Shown here: positions 40,261 through 44,550 of the stretch, in pieces
Layout of the letters: every line of letters begins with the position of its first letter
Position numbering within the stretch: the first letter of the stretch is position 1
Assembly (NCBI GenBank): GCA_965198235.1
Contig: OZ240248.1
Location: 1,824,001-1,888,000, forward strand
Direction of reading: 5' to 3'
Length of the DNA: 64,000 nt
Source of the DNA: Candidatus Poribacteria bacterium
GTDB lineage: Bacteria; Poribacteria; WGA-4E; WGA-3G
Translations under genes and position numbers: made by a program
Notes under the pieces: generated by a model
Database searches by the model: none
Told to the model about the DNA's origin: nothing
What the model saw: only the letters and a program-made list of their open reading frames with translations

Positions 40261-42399
40261 CTATACCCAAAACCCGTAAGTGGGAATACCCGCGATAATT
40301 CCTAAGATTGTCCAGAGACTCCCGACTGTAAACTCCCCCAAGATTAGCCCTAAGAAGAAAGGTGCTATCTTGCGATGCCGAATGACACCGCCGTACTGAA
40401 GAATAAGCCACTTGATTAACCAACTCATGAAAAGGCAACTCCACGTAACATTCATACCCCAACTCGTAGAGATAGCGAACCCTGCGGGATGAAATGGCCA
40501 CCAAACGAACCGCATCCGAAAGAACATCAGCACTGTTGTCAGCAGGAACCCAATGCCCATAAATCCACTTTCAGGGATAAGCGTCTCTTCTGGACCTTGC
40601 AACCATCCCGCAAGGCGACGATACGGCTCTATCCCAAAAGCACTCAAGGAGGGCCAGTACGCACGTATTTCCATGCCTAATCGATAACCCCGGTCGATTA
40701 ATGCCCAAAATCCTGCTAATGATCCTAAAATAGTCGCCAGCGTTAAGGCGAAAATGATACGATTCATCGTCATGTTGGTCCGTTCCATGATTTTGAAGCC
40801 TTCGAGCTGGTGTGGCATCGGGTGACTTCGATGTGCACGATTGATGAACCAAAACATCGAAAACATAACGAGGTTGTCTCTCCCCAACTGTCTTGTTCCG
40901 ACAGTGCGCCTCAAAATTTCATCAGGACCTGAGTAGTGCAAGTCATGCACAGGTGTGCCTAATTCGGCGCGCATCCGGGTTATAGCGATGGAGATCATGT
41001 AATAAATAACGAAAAATGCAAACATCACCCAAAGTTCAGCGCCCCCATAGTAGCAAAAAAGCACAAGGAATGCCATCACCCCGATGAGTCCAAGCGTCGC
41101 GCCACGATAGGACATCGGTTCTTGCGTGCTGCCCCCCGAAGCCGTGTTTACGGTATTTTCCTGTTGGGTGTTCAGGCCGAGAGCTGTTTTTGCCACGTGC
41201 AAAAGGTGTCTGCGACTTGCCCAAATAGCTAAAGCGCACAAAGCAAGGTAACCGCCTGATGCCTGCTCATTCATGTAGGGAAAACGGGGTAGACTACGCA
41301 GTCCAAGGGCAGCACCGAGAACCCGCATAAACCGCCAATACCAGAAGAAAAACCAGCATGAAAACGAAAGGTCAAGCGGAATAAAGAAACCGAGCCCGAT
41401 TGCAAACGGGTAGAGTGAAAACGGGATTCTCCCCATAGCGTTCCACGGGCTCTCCGTAAAGATTTGGAAACTTCGCACACGTGTCCGTAGTTCAGGTAAA
41501 ATCGGATACAGAAAGTTAACACCGTTCCACAGAGCAAGCGCACCAGCAATCCCAAAACCGAGCCACATCAATTTATTCTGAAAGAGGCGATTCTGTGGCG
41601 TTTCTGTCAATTGGAGTGGGAGTTGAATGATGGGGTAACTTAATTTCTCATGTTCGATCCATTGTTTACGAACAATTATATTGATGCAAAGCATGCCGAA
41701 AATCAACACAGTAATAAAGGCAGTCCACCAGAGTACAGGGGTTGCCCAACCGAGCAATGTTTCAACTGTGTAGAGGGGTAGCTCACCCTCATAATAGCCG
41801 AGTAAAAGGGACGGGTCGCTAACGGTGAGCCACTTTGGTAGGAACGGAACAAACAGCTGTTGCCACTCATTTTCTGGAGTAGCAAAGCGAGAGGCATGCC
41901 CTAACATTGGCACCAAGATCTCGAGCATATCGTGACCCGTAATTCCCGAAGCGATGGAAAGCATTAGGTAAACAATGACTAACTCGCTTTGTGCCAGTGC
42001 TAAGTTCGGGACAAAACGACGCAACAGGTAGTTTACACCGATAACCATGAACAGACTGAAAATCACATTGAAAAAGAGGGATATTGTTACAGGGTGACCT
42101 GAATACCGAATAACCTCCATCTCAATAACCCAGTAGCAGTTAATCGGTATTAGAATAACAGCAATAAGAATAGATTTGAGCGTGACACCGTGGGCAGGGA
42201 TTTGTGATGATGTTGGCAAAGAGGAAGTTTCAACTTCCATTTTTCTAACTATGGGCCTCCGTTCTGCCCTCCACTGCGTTTCGGGCAGGTTTCTGGTCAT
42301 GTCGCGGTCGCTTTGAAAATTTGTACGAGGTTTAACGAGAAAATTTAGCACTGGTTTGCTTTGTCGCTGAAGTTTTAGAATCATCATAGCGACCGCCAC
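40261..42399 (-). CDS. Large polytopic membrane protein (DUF6785/DUF6784-like, putative peptide transporter)
   Basis: RKQWIEHEKLSYPI, WWPFHPAG, PFFLGLILGEF; true start probably near 42239-42301. Confidence 0.7.
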   Translation of the reverse strand: MAVAMMILKLQRQSKPVLNFLVKPRTNFQSDRDMTRNLPETQWRAERRPIVRKMEVETSSLPTSSQIPAHGVTLKSILIAVILIPINCYWVIEMEVIRYSGHPVTISLFFNVIFSLFMVIGVNYLLRRFVPNLALAQSELVIVYLMLSIASGITGHDMLEILVPMLGHASRFATPENEWQQLFVPFLPKWLTVSDPSLLLGYYEGELPLYTVETLLGWATPVLWWTAFITVLIFGMLCINIIVRKQWIEHEKLSYPIIQLPLQLTETPQNRLFQNKLMWLGFGIAGALALWNGVNFLYPILPELRTRVRSFQIFTESPWNAMGRIPFSLYPFAIGLGFFIPLDLSFSCWFFFWYWRFMRVLGAALGLRSLPRFPYMNEQASGGYLALCALAIWASRRHLLHVAKTALGLNTQQENTVNTASGGSTQEPMSYRGATLGLIGVMAFLVLFCYYGGAELWVMFAFFVIYYMISIAITRMRAELGTPVHDLHYSGPDEILRRTVGTRQLGRDNLVMFSMFWFINRAHRSHPMPHQLEGFKIMERTNMTMNRIIFALTLATILGSLAGFWALIDRGYRLGMEIRAYWPSLSAFGIEPYRRLAGWLQGPEETLIPESGFMGIGFLLTTVLMFFRMRFVWWPFHPAGFAISTSWGMNVTWSCLFMSWLIKWLILQYGGVIRHRKIAPFFLGLILGEFTVGSLWTILGIIAGIPTYGFWV

Positions 42400-42634
42400 A
42401 AACGCCCGACCGCCATCTGTGAATATCTCCAGATAAATTTATCACAAATTTTACAACATGTCAATTTAAAATCTCTTGTACTTCTTAATCTGCCGATTGA
42501 TTTGAAGTCGCTGAGCACCAAGTTGCTTCGGCATAAAATAGACTTTTCTTAATAACTTTTCCGTGTTATGATTACTGCAATATGAGCTTGCAGATTGTGC
42601 CTAAATTGCATCTGTAACAACTCAGGATACACAT

Positions 42635-42869
42635 GTCAGTAACCCAACCTTAAAAGGTTGGGCTTGTGCGAAGCGTAGCCAAACGTCCACTCCACAGGAC
42701 TAAACTACTGACTACAGGTCGCCTAAACCCGTGGCGATATTAATAACGGGTTTACTGTAGATCTCGTTTGCAGGCGCGAGAAAAAATAATGCCTGCACTT
42801 TTCAAAACCAAAAGGAGGCGGTTTTTCCTCCCACTCCTAAAGGGTTGGGTTTCCAAACCGCAAAACTTG
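42635..42869 (+). mobile_element. Non-autonomous IS200/IS605-type element with IscB/HEARO-like ends
   Basis: Left GTCAGTAACCCAACCTTAAAAGGTTGGGCTTG, right TTCCTCCCACTCCTAAAGGGTTGGGTTTCC, followed by ATGA; no transposase or nuclease ORF. Confidence 0.75.
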
Positions 42870-43673
42870 ATGAAGCCATTCCACTATATTAAAAATCGAG
42901 TTGAAAGATTTTTTTACAATGCTTATCAGCGGCGCTTGGAATCCGAAGCCAATGCGTGGAACATCCCACGCCATATCGGTGTAATTTTAGATGGAAATCG
43001 TCGCTATGCTAAAGCCAGTGGACTTGACGATATCATTGAAGGGCACCATGAGGGCGCGGACAAGCTCGAAGAGGTACTCCATTGGTGCGACGAACTCGGC
43101 GTTGAAATTTTTTCAATCTGGATTTTCTCGCTTGATAATTTCAAACGTGCAGCACATGAAGTTGAAGGAATTCTTGGGCTTATTGAGGGAAAAATGCGGG
43201 AACTTGTCACAATTAAGGGACTCCATAGGAACCGGATCAAAGTGCGTGCGATGGGGCAGATAGAACTGTTACCACCCAGTCTGCAAGAAGCGATTCGGGA
43301 GGCGGAAGAAGCGACGCAACATTACGACAAGTTTATCTTAAATGTCGCTGTTGCTTATGGTGGGCGAGAAGAAATTATTGAAGCATTTCGGGGGCACCTG
43401 AAAGCCGAAAGTGAAAGCGGTAAACCTGCCCATCAAATTGCAGACGAACTCACAGTGGACAAGATTACACCCTACCTTTACACTTCAAACCTCCCCGATC
43501 CTGAGTTAATCATTCGCACCAGCGGTGAGGTCCGGTTATCAGGGTTTTTGCTCTGGCAGAGCGTTTACTCAGAATTCTATTTCTGCGATACGTACTGGCC
43601 CTCATTTCGGAAGATCGACTTTCTCCGTGCTTTGCGTGCTTATAGCCAACGAAAACGACGATTTGGACAATAA
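42870..43673 (+). CDS. uppS: Isoprenyl transferase (cis-prenyltransferase)
   Basis: PRHIGVILDGNRR, FSLDNFKR, YGGREE, IRTSGEVRLSGFLLWQ, RRFG. Confidence 0.92.
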   Translation: MKPFHYIKNRVERFFYNAYQRRLESEANAWNIPRHIGVILDGNRRYAKASGLDDIIEGHHEGADKLEEVLHWCDELGVEIFSIWIFSLDNFKRAAHEVEGILGLIEGKMRELVTIKGLHRNRIKVRAMGQIELLPPSLQEAIREAEEATQHYDKFILNVAVAYGGREEIIEAFRGHLKAESESGKPAHQIADELTVDKITPYLYTSNLPDPELIIRTSGEVRLSGFLLWQSVYSEFYFCDTYWPSFRKIDFLRALRAYSQRKRRFGQ

Positions 43674-43782
43674 AAGATAGACAGTAAAAATTCGACATAG
43701 CACTGCTAATCACTAACGGTTAAAATTTATTCCATCTGTGTATTCCAATTCCGTTGACAGATAGGTGAGAAGGAGCAAGCAC

Positions 43783-44550
43783 ATGAGATTTGGGGTTTGT
43801 ACAGGTTTAGAGAATGTCAATCGACTCGCAGAAGTTGGATATGACTACATTGAATTAGGCGTGCGTCCGGGGTTGATGCCTGAAGCGGATGAGGCTGAAT
43901 TCCAGAAAATTCGTGAACAGGTAGCGGAAGCACCGTTAAAGGCGGAGTCGTACTCCGGATTCATCCCCGGTGACCTGCGTGTGGTAGGCGATACAGTGGA
44001 TTTCCCACGCCTGTCACGCTATGTAGAGACCGCGTGTCGCAGAGGTAGTGAAATTGGCGGTGAAGTTATCGTCTACGGCAGCAGCGGTTCCCGGAGTATA
44101 GAAGAAGGCTATTCGCGCGAACGTGCATTGGCACAAATTGCTGAATTCCTCGATATGGCGGCAGATCATGCCGAAGCGCACAACATGACGATTGTCATCG
44201 AACCAATTTGCTGGCGAGAGGGCAATATCCTTCGGACCGTCGCAGATGGACTCGCTATGGCAAAACGCGTGAATCGTCCGGGTATCAAGGCGTTGGCAGA
44301 TCTCTATCACATCTATCAGGAAGAAGAACCGATGCAAAACATCATCGACGCTGCTGAGTGGCTCGCGCATGTCCACATAGCGGAACCGATCAAGCGTTCC
44401 TATCCCGGAAACGACGATTTCGATTTCACAGATTTCTTCACGGCACTACAAAAAGCGGGCTATGACGGTCGAGTCTCGTGTGAGTGCAAATTTGACAATT
44501 TTGATGAGGATGTTGAGGTAGCTTTGGAAACCATGAAAGCTTATATCTAA
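43783..44550 (+). CDS. Sugar phosphate isomerase/epimerase (xylose isomerase-like TIM barrel)
   Basis: GYDYIE, IVIEP, ADLYH, HVH, GYDG.VSCE. Confidence 0.85.
   Translation: MRFGVCTGLENVNRLAEVGYDYIELGVRPGLMPEADEAEFQKIREQVAEAPLKAESYSGFIPGDLRVVGDTVDFPRLSRYVETACRRGSEIGGEVIVYGSSGSRSIEEGYSRERALAQIAEFLDMAADHAEAHNMTIVIEPICWREGNILRTVADGLAMAKRVNRPGIKALADLYHIYQEEEPMQNIIDAAEWLAHVHIAEPIKRSYPGNDDFDFTDFFTALQKAGYDGRVSCECKFDNFDEDVEVALETMKAYI

Follow-up and report, generated by a model that had tools for sequence, protein, structure and literature searches.

Cas9 is descended from IsrB and IscB, and IS200/IS605-family transposons encoding IsrB (ISC1) were reportedly described by Altae-Tran et al. in 2021. Two questions about these proteins are live: why they are retained, and how a guide lying outside the element gets transcribed. 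ISC1/IsrB transposons and their protein-less derivatives (PATEs) are treated by Kapitonov et al. (2016; PMC4810608) and by Meers et al. (2023). The published ISC1 target is N|ATGA (PMC4810608), and the published IsrB TAMs are NTGA, NTG and NTGG.

The element described here lies in a window of 64,000 nucleotides, the whole stretch of Candidatus Poribacteria DNA that was analysed, and its type and target are already known. It resembles the ISC1/IsrB transposons and PATEs in many respects: each end has an imperfect subterminal hairpin, the sequence opens with 5'-GTCA, insertion is 5' of ATGA and duplicates nothing, an own tnpA is usually absent, a predicted omegaRNA lies at the 5' end with its putative guide outside the element and a presumed need for outside transcription, and gene-less derivatives occur. 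It differs in that the uppS copy, like most of its family, lies precisely between the Shine-Dalgarno sequence and the ATG of intact host genes, and in its reduced omegaRNA-like domain; no near-identical master copy was found in the genome, the closest copy showing 82% identity.

Table 1. Features of the mini-element and of the uppS gene that it precedes (coordinates are positions in the window).
Feature	Position	Strand	Remarks
Probable extended -10, TGTTATGAT, in the uppS promoter	42564-42572	+	Read from the sequence; tgttataat block conserved upstream of uppS in same-genus loci
Last ~20 nt of the uppS 5'UTR	42615-42634	+	Native Shine-Dalgarno AGGAT at 42624-42628, spacer ACACAT
Whole ORF-less element, ISC1/IsrB-type, PATE-like mini-IS	42635-42869	+	235 bp; empty sites, other copies, ends common with IsrB elements
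5' domain	42635-42713	+	Homologous to the 5' omegaRNA part of full-length IsrB elements
5' TAAA-loop hairpin	42643-42662	+	Within the 5' domain
GCAGGC/GCCTGC hairpin, 15-nt loop, then T-rich run	42770-42796	+	6 pairs, identical in 4/4 copies
Element-borne Shine-Dalgarno-like AAGGAGG	42812-42818	+	Unpaired in local fold; adjoins the outer stem
3' subterminal structure, outer stem GCGGTTT/AAACCGC	42818-42861	+	Folds; both stems covary between copies
3' TAAA-loop hairpin	42830-42849	+	Enclosed by the outer stem of the 3' subterminal structure
8-nt single-stranded tail AAAACTTG	42862-42869	+	Last stretch of the element, from hairpin foot to target
ATGA target (TAM): uppS start codon and next base	42870-42873	+	ATGAA kept in empty sites
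uppS, cis-prenyltransferase, 267 aa, intact	42870-43673	+	Pfam Prenyltransf E 2e-76

The segment at 42635-42869 is a non-autonomous, gene-less derivative of an IsrB-type (ISC1) IS200/IS605 element. The original prediction, of a 235-bp segment with paired TAAA-loop hairpins followed by ATGA, agreed with the sequence: the 5' end reads GTCAGTAACCCAACCT-TAAA-AGGTTGGGCTTG from 42635, and the 3' end reads CCCACTCC-TAAA-GGGTTGGGTTTCCAAACCGCAAAACTTG to 42869, followed by ATGAAG from 42870. Its start at 42635 was retained, but its end at 42873 had taken in the ATGA target and was moved to 42869. The 5' flank consists of AGGAT (42624-42628) and ACACAT (42629-42634), and the family consensus of the 3' tail is AAGATTTTG. 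Both strands folded better than shuffled sequences (z -4.25 and -4.68; 0 of 200 shuffles as good), and in the consensus fold of four mini copies 15 of the 52 predicted pairs were kept by compensating changes on both sides, so that the structure and repetition of the element are more than chance. In the same fold the 5' domain is closed by a helix of GTCAGT with ACTGAC. The GCAGGC/GCCTGC hairpin is an internal omegaRNA-like stem and a potential weak terminator.

Membership of the IS200/IS605 family was indicated by imperfect subterminal hairpins at both ends (42643-42662 and 42830-42849), by a specific target of 4-5 nt entered without duplication, and by several copies whose ends are common with those of protein-coding elements. 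Three further near-full mini copies (76-82% identity) and many one-end-only matches were found in the genome; across 40 other genomes of the genus, the search for mini copies gave just two partial matches. With a profile of the mini copies (nhmmer), model positions 1-101 aligned to C1:4649122, a full-length element, at E 5.6e-14; the 3' end of the uppS copy matched that of full-length IsrB elements with E down to 1e-20. A non-autonomous, OMEGA-derived element with further copies and a protein-coding parent, as had been predicted, was thereby recovered: it has no ORF, and its ends are those of the IsrB elements, of which the genome holds six genes in full length and five remnants.

The parent had been expected to be IscB, on the grounds of IscB/HEARO-like ends. 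The OMEGA-derived IS200/IS605 type held, but the assignment to IscB did not. The parent protein (341 aa) has an RRXRR (PLMP) domain at its N-terminus as its only Pfam domain, with a split RuvC, no HNH insert and a length close to the ~350 aa of IsrB. Its best solved relative is IsrB (8dmb, E 7e-35, residues 5-281), whereas IscB structure chains matched only the first ~120 of the 341 residues; D61, E154 and D225 were invariant among 18 aligned homologues. An HNH-bearing IscB was accordingly rejected as parent.

The similarity to the HEARO RNA (RF02033), the IscB-type omegaRNA, is weak. The opening GUCA, a UAAA-type first hairpin loop, the closing helix and a 3' purine-rich GAGGCG are alike, and a sister copy (L004) scored 28.2 bits (E 0.016, positions 1-211) and a full-length element (L008) 25.4 bits. 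The gathering score is 83, however, and was not reached by the uppS copy, L004 or L008, and an Rfam scan of 41500-44000 at E<=1 found no match to any family, HEARO included. The mini-element has no counterpart of the conserved central hairpin region of the model; it also lacks the central omegaRNA part of the full-length elements, and the middle of its scaffold differs from theirs. By its position and partial homology the RNA of the mini-element is predicted to be omegaRNA-like. The published layout of IsrB/IscB loci (PMC9581776; Meers preprint) gives a guide role to the segment flanking the omegaRNA, and by analogy 42615-42634 would be the putative guide segment of an omegaRNA starting at 42635. 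The block at 42564-42572, as the likely -10 of the uppS promoter, would also drive transcription of guide and element; it is counted as inferred because a strict two-hexamer promoter scan did not call it. The same scan found no promoter on the + strand within the mini-element, which is a weak test since the likely uppS promoter was missed too.

The comparison of the uppS 5' region among relatives placed the insertion precisely. All 18 same-genus orthologues begin at the ATG equivalent to 42870 (N-termini MKPF/MNPF), and none of the 18 uppS loci read carries the insertion: the 5' flank joins ATGAA directly, without target duplication. These empty sites ruled out a reading of 42635-42869 as a conserved leader, and also one in which the ATG is part of the element rather than its target, as ATGAA is kept. 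In 17 of the 18 loci the uppS ATG is preceded, at a distance of 5-9 nt, by a motif of the AGGA/GGGA type, in agreement with the prediction that removal of the segment leaves an AGGA Shine-Dalgarno sequence at normal spacing; the lone exception (G014) has unrelated sequence before the ATG. With the insertion directly 5' of ATGA, the native AGGAT and the ATG are now split by 235 nt. The gene so cut off from its ribosome-binding site, as the prediction had it for an essential-family gene, is the sole uppS (one match to PF01255 in the whole genome), which shows 90-96% identity to same-genus orthologues and no internal stops.

Most members of the family occupy the start codons of genes that are intact and in several cases essential, in line with the predicted landing at start codons. 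ATG adjoined 26 of the 35 3'-end matches counted in this genome at E<=1e-2, and real gene starts lay under 17 of these 26 copies, including those of a MatE gene and of pheT, rpsR and trpB. Of the 26, 16 open ORFs that are 250 aa or longer, and one more was the gene for ribosomal protein S18. Against this, an ORF of that length begins at only 9.4% of the 80,903 ATGR sites of the genome (P 8e-11), and at 2.25% the site is also the first in-frame ATG (P 2e-20). In 9 of 18 N-termini tested, a Pfam domain opened at profile positions 1-5 inside the first 9-45 residues, the domains beside the copies being S18, MatE, Rhodanese, DHDPS, DegT, VWA, FGE-sulfatase, PheT tRNA_bind and BNR. Other copies lie on genes that resemble rpsJ, rpmJ and dnaN by their N-terminal sequence.

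The same habit was seen outside this genome. The best 80 of 542 loci from a search with a 6-sequence IsrB alignment were all from Poribacteria and all full-length, and an ATG adjoined 71 of the 80; an ORF of at least 60 aa began at this ATG in 42 of the 71, and the 3' flank was ATGA in 69 and ATGG in 2. The predicted ATGA target thus recurred, with ATGA or ATGG following almost all copies. Four of the eight cyanobacterial plasmid copies read, among 12 records, likewise abutted an ORF. Of 38 gene-abutting loci, 24 had a native Shine-Dalgarno-like 4-mer at the end of the 5' flank, vs. 3 of 26 others (Fisher P 0.0011 for 15/27 vs. 3/26). At the start of pheT an orthologous 3'-end remnant was present in 3 of the 30 genus loci read, kept across three species with a diverged hairpin and an intact pheT; old remnants such as this one retain just the motif, the hairpin and the tail, the rest of the element being lost.

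The start-codon share of the family is about 60% of copies. Selective loss of gene-breaking insertions inflates this share, and a rough calculation, not a fitted model, gave ~64% expected at start codons among transcribed, harmless sites. Start codons would be favoured as the commonest ATGA/ATGG sites at which host transcription runs in the sense direction and no reading frame is broken, sense transcription being favoured because it is needed for a guide-bearing omegaRNA. A dependence on host transcription is stated for IscB in the Meers et al. preprint. The start-codon habit was not found in the literature searched, though the supplementary target-site figures of PMC4810608 may show such contexts.

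Transcripts across the locus were represented by assembled contigs of metatranscriptome libraries, which may contain DNA and may drop rare forms, a minor spliced or excised one included. One contig spans 42590-43099 with two mismatches and no gap, and others bridge 42546-42708 and 42595-42874, so that 5'UTR, element and uppS appeared unspliced; joints removing the element were found in none of the four RNA runs. RNA cover is absent in parts, e.g. at 42470-42537 in all four runs. Some RNA contigs leave the window sequence at 42857 or 42876 into other flanks, and probably belong to other copies or strains; the reading of the locus makes no use of them, of the gaps in cover or of the depth figures. 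The uppS promoter would accordingly be expected to yield one RNA, composed of the 5'UTR (the would-be guide), the element and uppS, in which the element stays.

The contigs across the locus bear on an IStron-like reading, in which self-splicing or processing would take the element out of the RNA and restore the spacing between Shine-Dalgarno and AUG in the mRNA. The highly structured RNA of the element would fit such a removal, as would the T that ends the 5' flank and the G that ends the element at the uppS copy, a pattern shared with group I splice sites; fusions of IS605-type elements with group I introns are also known (PMC4810608). The lack of any joint in the four runs, with one contig running unspliced from the 5'UTR into uppS, nevertheless makes splicing extremely improbable: no Rfam family matched at E<=1, group I and II introns and small ribozymes included, the last flank base differs among copies (T, A, G or C), and the 235 nt with their predicted fold lack a recognisable intron core. 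Membership among the group I introns or IStrons was rejected for the missing Rfam match, the missing joints and the variable last flank base. IStrons, a related transposon family made up of IS605/IS607-type elements with a fused group I intron, likewise lessen the damage done by insertion into genes, but they self-splice from RNA, and the uppS copy has neither an intron signature nor a spliced form; unlike in IStrons, tolerance here seems to come from site choice and translation signals.

The insertion might also silence uppS in the cells that carry it, with function left to those cells or chromosome copies that TnpA has freed of the element and whose native ribosome-binding site is thereby restored. 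IS200/IS605 elements excise precisely (Meers preprint), the uppS copy keeps both its ends, and TnpA genes are present in the genome. No contig of the four RNA libraries joins 42634 to 42870, however, although contigs can miss rare forms, and a recognisable 5' end is lacking in 11 of the 19 copies that abut a start, three of these 11 retaining only 3' fragments of IsrB. Start-abutting copies without a 5' end are not excisable, and yet lie on intact genes such as pheT and rpsR; together with the persistence of the pheT remnant across three species, this leaves excision a very unlikely explanation. Among the ways in which the insertion had been predicted to be tolerated, the supply of translation signals was therefore favoured, and removal at the RNA level, with no joint in four RNA runs, was not.

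The reading that best explains the locus as a whole, which we regard as probable though well short of secure, is that of an IsrB-type mini-element that was moved in trans, is retained in the RNA and carries a portable split ribosome-binding site. The uppS gene would still be translated from its own ATG, with the 3' end of the element acting as this split site: AAGGAGG, then the covarying hairpin, then 8-10 nt, then AUG. Folding would bring the Shine-Dalgarno sequence to working distance, as the 3' foot of the hairpin is 8-10 nt from the AUG. The structure at 42818-42861 is presumed to be the TnpA recognition hairpin, and is proposed, from the modelled fold, as the candidate bridge of the split site. 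Hairpins and covariation are not specific for an RNA role, since TnpA recognition of single-stranded DNA predicts both.

In the local fold AAGGAG is free, 42818-42824 is paired with 42855-42861, and 8 nt follow to the AUG (d1 = 1 nt, d2 = 10 nt), which reduces 49 nt to ~9-11 nt; by geometry alone, a Shine-Dalgarno sequence would thus be held at 5-11 nt by a stable hairpin. The split-site geometry (d1 -2 to 2, d2 8-11 nt) was found in the minimum-energy fold of 11 of 18 start-abutting copies, the other 7 having a different minimum-energy fold, and in the consensus fold of the four minis the GGC of the motif pairs with an upstream GCC, which could hide part of the motif. Bacteriophage T4 offers a parallel, genes 38 and 25, in which a hairpin shortens a distant Shine-Dalgarno-AUG spacing to 5-11 nt (PMC3014915). 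There too the Shine-Dalgarno sequence is far from the AUG with a stable hairpin between, but the T4 cases are fixed, single genes and mutation-proven, whereas the present one is mobile, concerns many genes and is inferred only. Geometry and this analogy, with the siting of most relatives on other start codons, suggest that the transposon end itself may supply the translation-start signal.

A GGAG/GAGG equivalent was read in 16 of 19 start-abutting copies of the genome, and occurred in 50 of the 71 full-length ATG-adjoining loci among the best 80 of 542 from other Poribacteria. In the latter set it was present in 31 of 42 gene-abutting and 19 of 29 other copies, with no clear difference, and in full-length elements it falls inside the last IsrB codons; the Shine-Dalgarno-like motif is part of the make-up of the element, with no visible selection by context. 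Shine-Dalgarno use in the organism was estimated at 46% of crude starts vs. 10.6% background, and a pattern search of the assembly for the 16S 3' end gave no match.

The same data leave room for a simpler initiation, in which uppS is translated from its own ATG without the AAGGAGG and hairpin of the element, through the A/U-rich tail (S1/standby) or at a low level that suffices. The 8-nt tail and the first codons are rich in A/U and for the most part unpaired, a Shine-Dalgarno-like 4-mer is missing from about half of the crude gene starts of the genome, some native pheT leaders in the genus have no Shine-Dalgarno at all, and one start-abutting remnant (C1:755853) keeps only its last 29 nt, without the motif; the motif being no commoner in gene-abutting than in other copies points the same way. 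We consider it rather unlikely all the same, as 16 of 19 start-abutting copies in this genome have the strong motif in the same position next to the stem, a bridged spacing of 8-12 nt is found repeatedly, and it is precisely motif, hairpin and tail that survive in old remnants such as that on pheT.

Translation could instead start in frame inside the element, at ATG 42789, TTG 42768 or the TTG directly before the ATG, and give an N-terminally extended UppS. The frame is open back to 42768 (301-aa ORF), and in other copies too it runs through the 3' hairpin without a stop, e.g. for 17 extra codons before the MatE gene, because the TAA of the loop falls in another frame. This openness follows from the fixed geometry of the element end, however; the upstream start codons are not conserved between copies, only a weak GAGA precedes ATG 42789, and the basic/hydrophobic extension of 27-34 residues has no counterpart in the 18 orthologues. 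An extended UppS was thus considered improbable, and initiation at the uppS ATG with the split ribosome-binding site was preferred.

No tnpA was found inside any element of the mini/IsrB family in the genome, which has six Y1 TnpA (Y1_Tnp) genes. Two IS605 elements of the genome (L011 and L012) encode TnpA and TnpB, and the core of their left-end hairpin, reverse-complemented, is the hairpin core of the mini/IsrB family ends, with GATAA as flank motif vs. ATGA for the family. A Y1 TnpA supplied in trans would have moved the uppS mini-element, the TnpA+TnpB copies having the same hairpin core.

A wider reading, put forward tentatively and as possible rather than probable, is that IsrB (ISC1) homes on start codons through its NTG(A/G) motif and that the TnpA-recognised end doubles as a hairpin-bridged ribosome-binding site. 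The promoter of the host gene would transcribe the flanking guide and the omegaRNA, and IsrB where present, and the transposon end would keep up translation of the invaded gene, essential genes included. The uppS copy would be a stripped-down member living entirely on the start-codon arrangement, and decayed 3' ends, e.g. on pheT, may have become permanent translation-initiation regions, old remnants now serving as working leaders of essential genes. Start-codon siting suggests a simple answer to the live questions, namely that the host promoter makes the guide RNA and reading frames stay unbroken. If true, the transposon end would be a movable ribosome-binding site, with a new route to harmless mobile DNA and to the rewiring of expression.

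Gene callers and start prediction based on ribosome-binding sites will mis-score genes with such insertions. The annotated start of Nostoc dpdE lies 7 codons downstream of the abutting ATG, and may be a mis-scored example.

The 235-bp ORF-less segment in front of uppS had exactly the sequence given in the original prediction, with two TAAA-loop hairpins and ATGA directly after it, and the overall interpretation proved essentially right once IsrB replaced IscB as the parent type. It is an IsrB (ISC1)-type element inserted exactly between the native Shine-Dalgarno sequence and the ATG of uppS, whose 267-aa product is a cis-prenyltransferase (Pfam Prenyltransf, E 2e-76) and the only one of its kind encoded in the 5.17-Mb assembly.

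Features of the uppS element (window positions) and flanks of three related copies (positions on C1 of this genome)
Feature	Position	Strand	Description
Whole element	42635-42869	+	235 bp; 5' end GTCAGT
5' flank of element		+	AGGAT then six bases
5' TAAA-loop hairpin	42643-42662	+	follows GTCAGT start
AAGGAG	42812-42817	+	unpaired in local fold
Outer stem	G42818-T42824 paired with 42855-42861	+	local fold, around inner hairpin
3' TAAA-loop hairpin	42830-42849	+	enclosed by outer stem
Tail	8 nt between outer stem and AUG	+	local fold
ATGAAG	from 42870	+	directly 3' of element; ATG is the uppS start
5' flanks of three off-start minis	C1:3046340-3046387, 1012400-1012451, 3157920-3157960		promoter-like -10 about 10-25 nt upstream

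The UppS protein was searched in 30 relatives and matched in 29 of 31 genomes (including the window's own); 18 loci of the same genus were examined. The element was absent from all 18, which rules out a conserved leader, and 17 showed the predicted empty site, with an AGGA/GGGA-type motif 5-9 nt before the same ATG. Element-free flanks joined without target duplication, and UppS was 90-96% identical to its same-genus orthologues, with no stop codon. In the exception, the congener G014 (locus L022), the last ~95 nt of the otherwise conserved leader were replaced by unrelated sequence lacking the AGGA motif, and a different IS605-type end lay ~400-600 nt upstream; the replacement may record a further insertion event at this site. 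The uppS leader at 42578-42623, conserved in outline across the genus, can form short hairpins (tgcaa…ttgca, ttgcag…ctgcaa-like) and may itself be regulatory.

Other copies and a parent, both anticipated, were found. Three further near-full ORF-less copies (minis; 76-82% identity) and many one-end-only matches were present in the genome, and beyond two of the 5'-end matches lay a longer RNA-like leader followed by a 341-aa ORF. The OMEGA-type ends were thus shared with protein-coding parents as predicted, but these parents were IsrB (ISC1) and not IscB, because the 341-aa protein had only the RRXRR/PLMP domain in Pfam and no HNH, its best solved relative was the nickase IsrB (8dmb, E 7e-35), and IscB chains matched just its first ~120 residues. 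Six full-length and five remnant IsrB genes were detected by tblastn; full-length elements measured ~1,265 bp and had the 5' ~100 nt and 3' ~85 nt in common with the mini. Similarity to HEARO (Rfam) was weak and stayed below threshold: the uppS copy gave no match, and a sister mini and a full-length element scored 28.2 and 25.4 bits against a gathering score of 83, with the purine-rich GGAGGCGG of the sister mini aligned at the 3' end of the model. Two further full-length IsrB genes (~70% identity) occurred at C1:2947360-2948379 (-) and 4679181-4680185 (+), their 3' ends missed by the family profile; one of these loci still had …GAAGAAGCTG as its end, followed immediately by the ATGA that starts a 478-aa protein with a signal peptide.

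The position at start codons was family-wide. A 3'-end profile matched the genome in 48 places at E<1, of which 35 had E<=1e-2, and 26 of these 35 adjoined an ATG: 16 opened an ORF of at least 250 aa, one was ribosomal protein S18 (66 aa; Pfam Ribosomal_S18, E 2e-27), two opened ORFs of 183 and 72 aa, and 7 opened fewer than 60 aa. The predicted landing on start codons thereby held for real gene starts in 17 of the 26 copies, the invaded genes including uppS, pheT, rpsR, trpB and genes for a MatE pump, a DegT aminotransferase and a DHDPS-family enzyme; an RNase E/G gene was an additional case outside the 26 (3'-end match E 0.18). Some family match was obtained for 16 of 18 N-termini tested, and in 9 the first 9-45 residues already contained the start of the Pfam domain, at profile positions 1-5, so the abutting ATGs are true N-termini and not internal Met codons. 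Of all 80,903 ATGA/ATGG sites, 9.4% begin an ORF of at least 250 aa (P 8e-11 for the observed 16/26) and 2.25% do so as the first in-frame ATG (P 2e-20), both nulls taking no account of gene-breaking insertions that were lost. Among copies with an identified 5' end, those at uppS, trpB, the LamG, MR_MLE and rhodanese genes, and a 72-aa ORF had a 5' flank ending in a Shine-Dalgarno sequence plus spacer.

Full-length IsrB loci in other Candidatus or uncultured Poribacteria records behaved similarly. Among the best 80 of 542, the 3' end was recognisable in 72 and abutted an ATG in 71 (69 ATGA, the flank anticipated, and 2 ATGG), opening at least 150 aa in 30 and at least 60 aa in 42; by N-terminal sequence, some of these ORFs look like S10, L36 and DnaN. 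Both ends were paired in 64 loci; of these, 15/27 with an ORF of at least 150 aa, 9/11 with 60-149 aa and 3/26 with <60 aa had a Shine-Dalgarno-like 4-mer between -18 and -4 in the 5' flank (15/27 vs. 3/26, Fisher P 0.0011), the loci being not all independent since some may be orthologous insertions. A plasmid collection contained 12 cyanobacterial records with an IsrB homologue, 8 of which were examined. The 3' end adjoined the ATGA of the next gene's annotated start in Stanieria, Leptolyngbya and Dolichospermum, and in Nostoc sp. PCC 7120 plasmid alpha (L197) an ATG lying in frame with dpdE and 7 codons ahead of its annotated GTG, a start that may be wrongly annotated because the element hides the expected ribosome-binding site. 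In Calothrix the ATGA lay 7 nt upstream of the annotated start in a different frame, in Acaryochloris the flank was GTGA with no gene, and two records were broken or ambiguous.

According to the Meers et al. preprint, the IscB guide lies outside the element, so that transcription must begin outside, and insertions in transcribed sites are preferentially made or kept. With an ATGA/ATGG target, the start codon would be the commonest sense-transcribed site that breaks no ORF, and we infer that start codons are favoured as such targets. A rough estimate (start codon ATGR in ~0.55 of genes by crude counts, ~0.31 ATGR sites per 40-nt 5'UTR) placed ~64% of copies at starts, close to the observed 59-65%. 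The three off-start minis lay just downstream of promoter-like sequences (e.g. a perfect TTGACA-17 nt-TAAAAT, ending ~20 nt before C1:3046388), at a distance of ~10-25 nt from the -10 that would give a short 5' guide.

RNA was represented by assembled contigs from four sponge metatranscriptome runs, which may contain DNA and drop rare forms. A 541-nt contig covered 42590-43099 with 2 mismatches and no gap, and therefore ran through the 5'UTR and the entire element and on for 230 nt into uppS; additional contigs spanned 42546-42708 and 42595-42874. The unspliced form was thus present in the RNA libraries, where other forms may occur as well. Removal at the RNA level, one of the options first proposed, fits less well: no spliced or excised joints at the element were reported in the four runs, though rare forms could escape, and the unspliced contig runs over both junctions. 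Over the first ~70 nt (42635-42707), summed contig depth in the four runs (X1-X4) reached 833 and was 10-15 times as high as over the flanks, contig depth being a poor measure; the excess stemmed from contigs with the flank of the C1:1012452 copy or of other copies, a hint that in some copies the 5' domain may be abundant as RNA.

The element's 3' end would most likely serve as a split ribosome-binding site, its two parts, the Shine-Dalgarno-like AAGGAGG motif and the start codon, being joined by folding. The mini folded better than shuffled sequences on both strands (z -4.25 and -4.68; 0/200 equally good), and compensatory changes occurred in 15/52 consensus pairs across the four minis, whose structure appears to be maintained under selection through sequence change; hairpin covariation is, however, expected from TnpA recognition alone. 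Among 18 start-abutting copies, the minimum-energy fold of 11 placed the outer stem 8-11 nt from the AUG and no more than 2 nt from the motif, but 7 favoured a different fold, and some of the motif can be paired in the mini consensus fold. A start at the same ATG unaided by the motif would agree with the motif being no commoner in gene-abutting copies (31/42) than in others (19/29), yet it fits less well. An N-terminally extended UppS, for which the frame is open upstream to 42768, also fits less well. The split site resembles T4 genes 38 and 25, in which a hairpin brings a distant Shine-Dalgarno sequence near the AUG (22 nt shortened to 5 nt and 27 nt to 11 nt; PMC3014915), here as judged from fold geometry. 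Shine-Dalgarno use in this organism was 46% against a background of 10.6% (crude count). In full-length elements the IsrB ORF runs into the 3' end, stopping at TAA in the hairpin loop, and distant IsrB proteins share no conserved C-terminal tail; the motif therefore belongs to the DNA/RNA end and not to the protein.

At pheT, a ~65-nt remnant (motif, hairpin and tail) stood at the start in 3 of 30 genus loci (this genome, G018 and G014), with diverged hairpins and pheT intact; it is an old shared insertion, no longer excisable. Rescue of uppS by excision fits less well, and the persistence of non-excisable remnants on essential genes is best explained, among all these alternatives, by retained, element-assisted translation. 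The trpB element, a 353-bp deletion derivative, occurred in this genome alone among 30 genus loci, as did near-full minis among the 41 genus genomes searched; the uppS mini was without a close sibling. Part of the genus (L084-L099 and L109) carried a 13-codon N-terminal TrpB extension that had a GGAG and an ATG of its own and was accompanied by a short hairpin (cctgcaac…gcgcagg) and by ~30 nt of the old leader in duplicate. The arrangement looks like an older small insertion through which a new start arose; the ATG of the extended TrpB was preceded in G014, at a distance of 11 nt, by the end of a GATAA-class element.

The uppS element itself is a new member of a published type. ISC1 elements starting GT(CA) and inserted at N|ATGA without duplication (PMC4810608), IsrB TAMs (NTGA, NTG, NTGG; PMC9581776), protein-less PATEs (PMC4810608; Meers preprint) and dependence on outside transcription have all been described. 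The start-codon habit and a ribosome-binding role of the transposon end were not found in the literature searched, though earlier mention may exist elsewhere or in supplements: "start codon" is absent from PMC9581776, PMC13565253 (a 2026 OMEGA review) and PMC9755519, both it and "initiation codon" from PMC4810608, and its lone use in the Meers preprint is in a figure legend, to define an axis. The family behaviour exposed by the uppS element appears to be new and merits testing.

Six Y1 transposase genes were present in the genome, none of them inside an element of the IsrB/mini family. Mobilisation of the mini in trans by a Y1 TnpA is plausible, because the left-end hairpin of two identical TnpA+TnpB IS605 copies (L011, L012) is, in reverse complement, the hairpin core of the IsrB/mini ends; a second, GATAA-flanked class of ends belongs to these copies. 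A high-copy family of at least 12 near-identical ends starting GTGATAGACCCAAG.CTAAAGACTTGGGCTTCTGCAA, with the same hairpin type and a different continuation (e.g. C1:365737, 239740, 3151553, 614378, 596084, 230850, 4602738, 2108263, 5119659 and 2576849), is probably the opposite end of the TnpB/GATAA-class IS605 elements or their PATEs.
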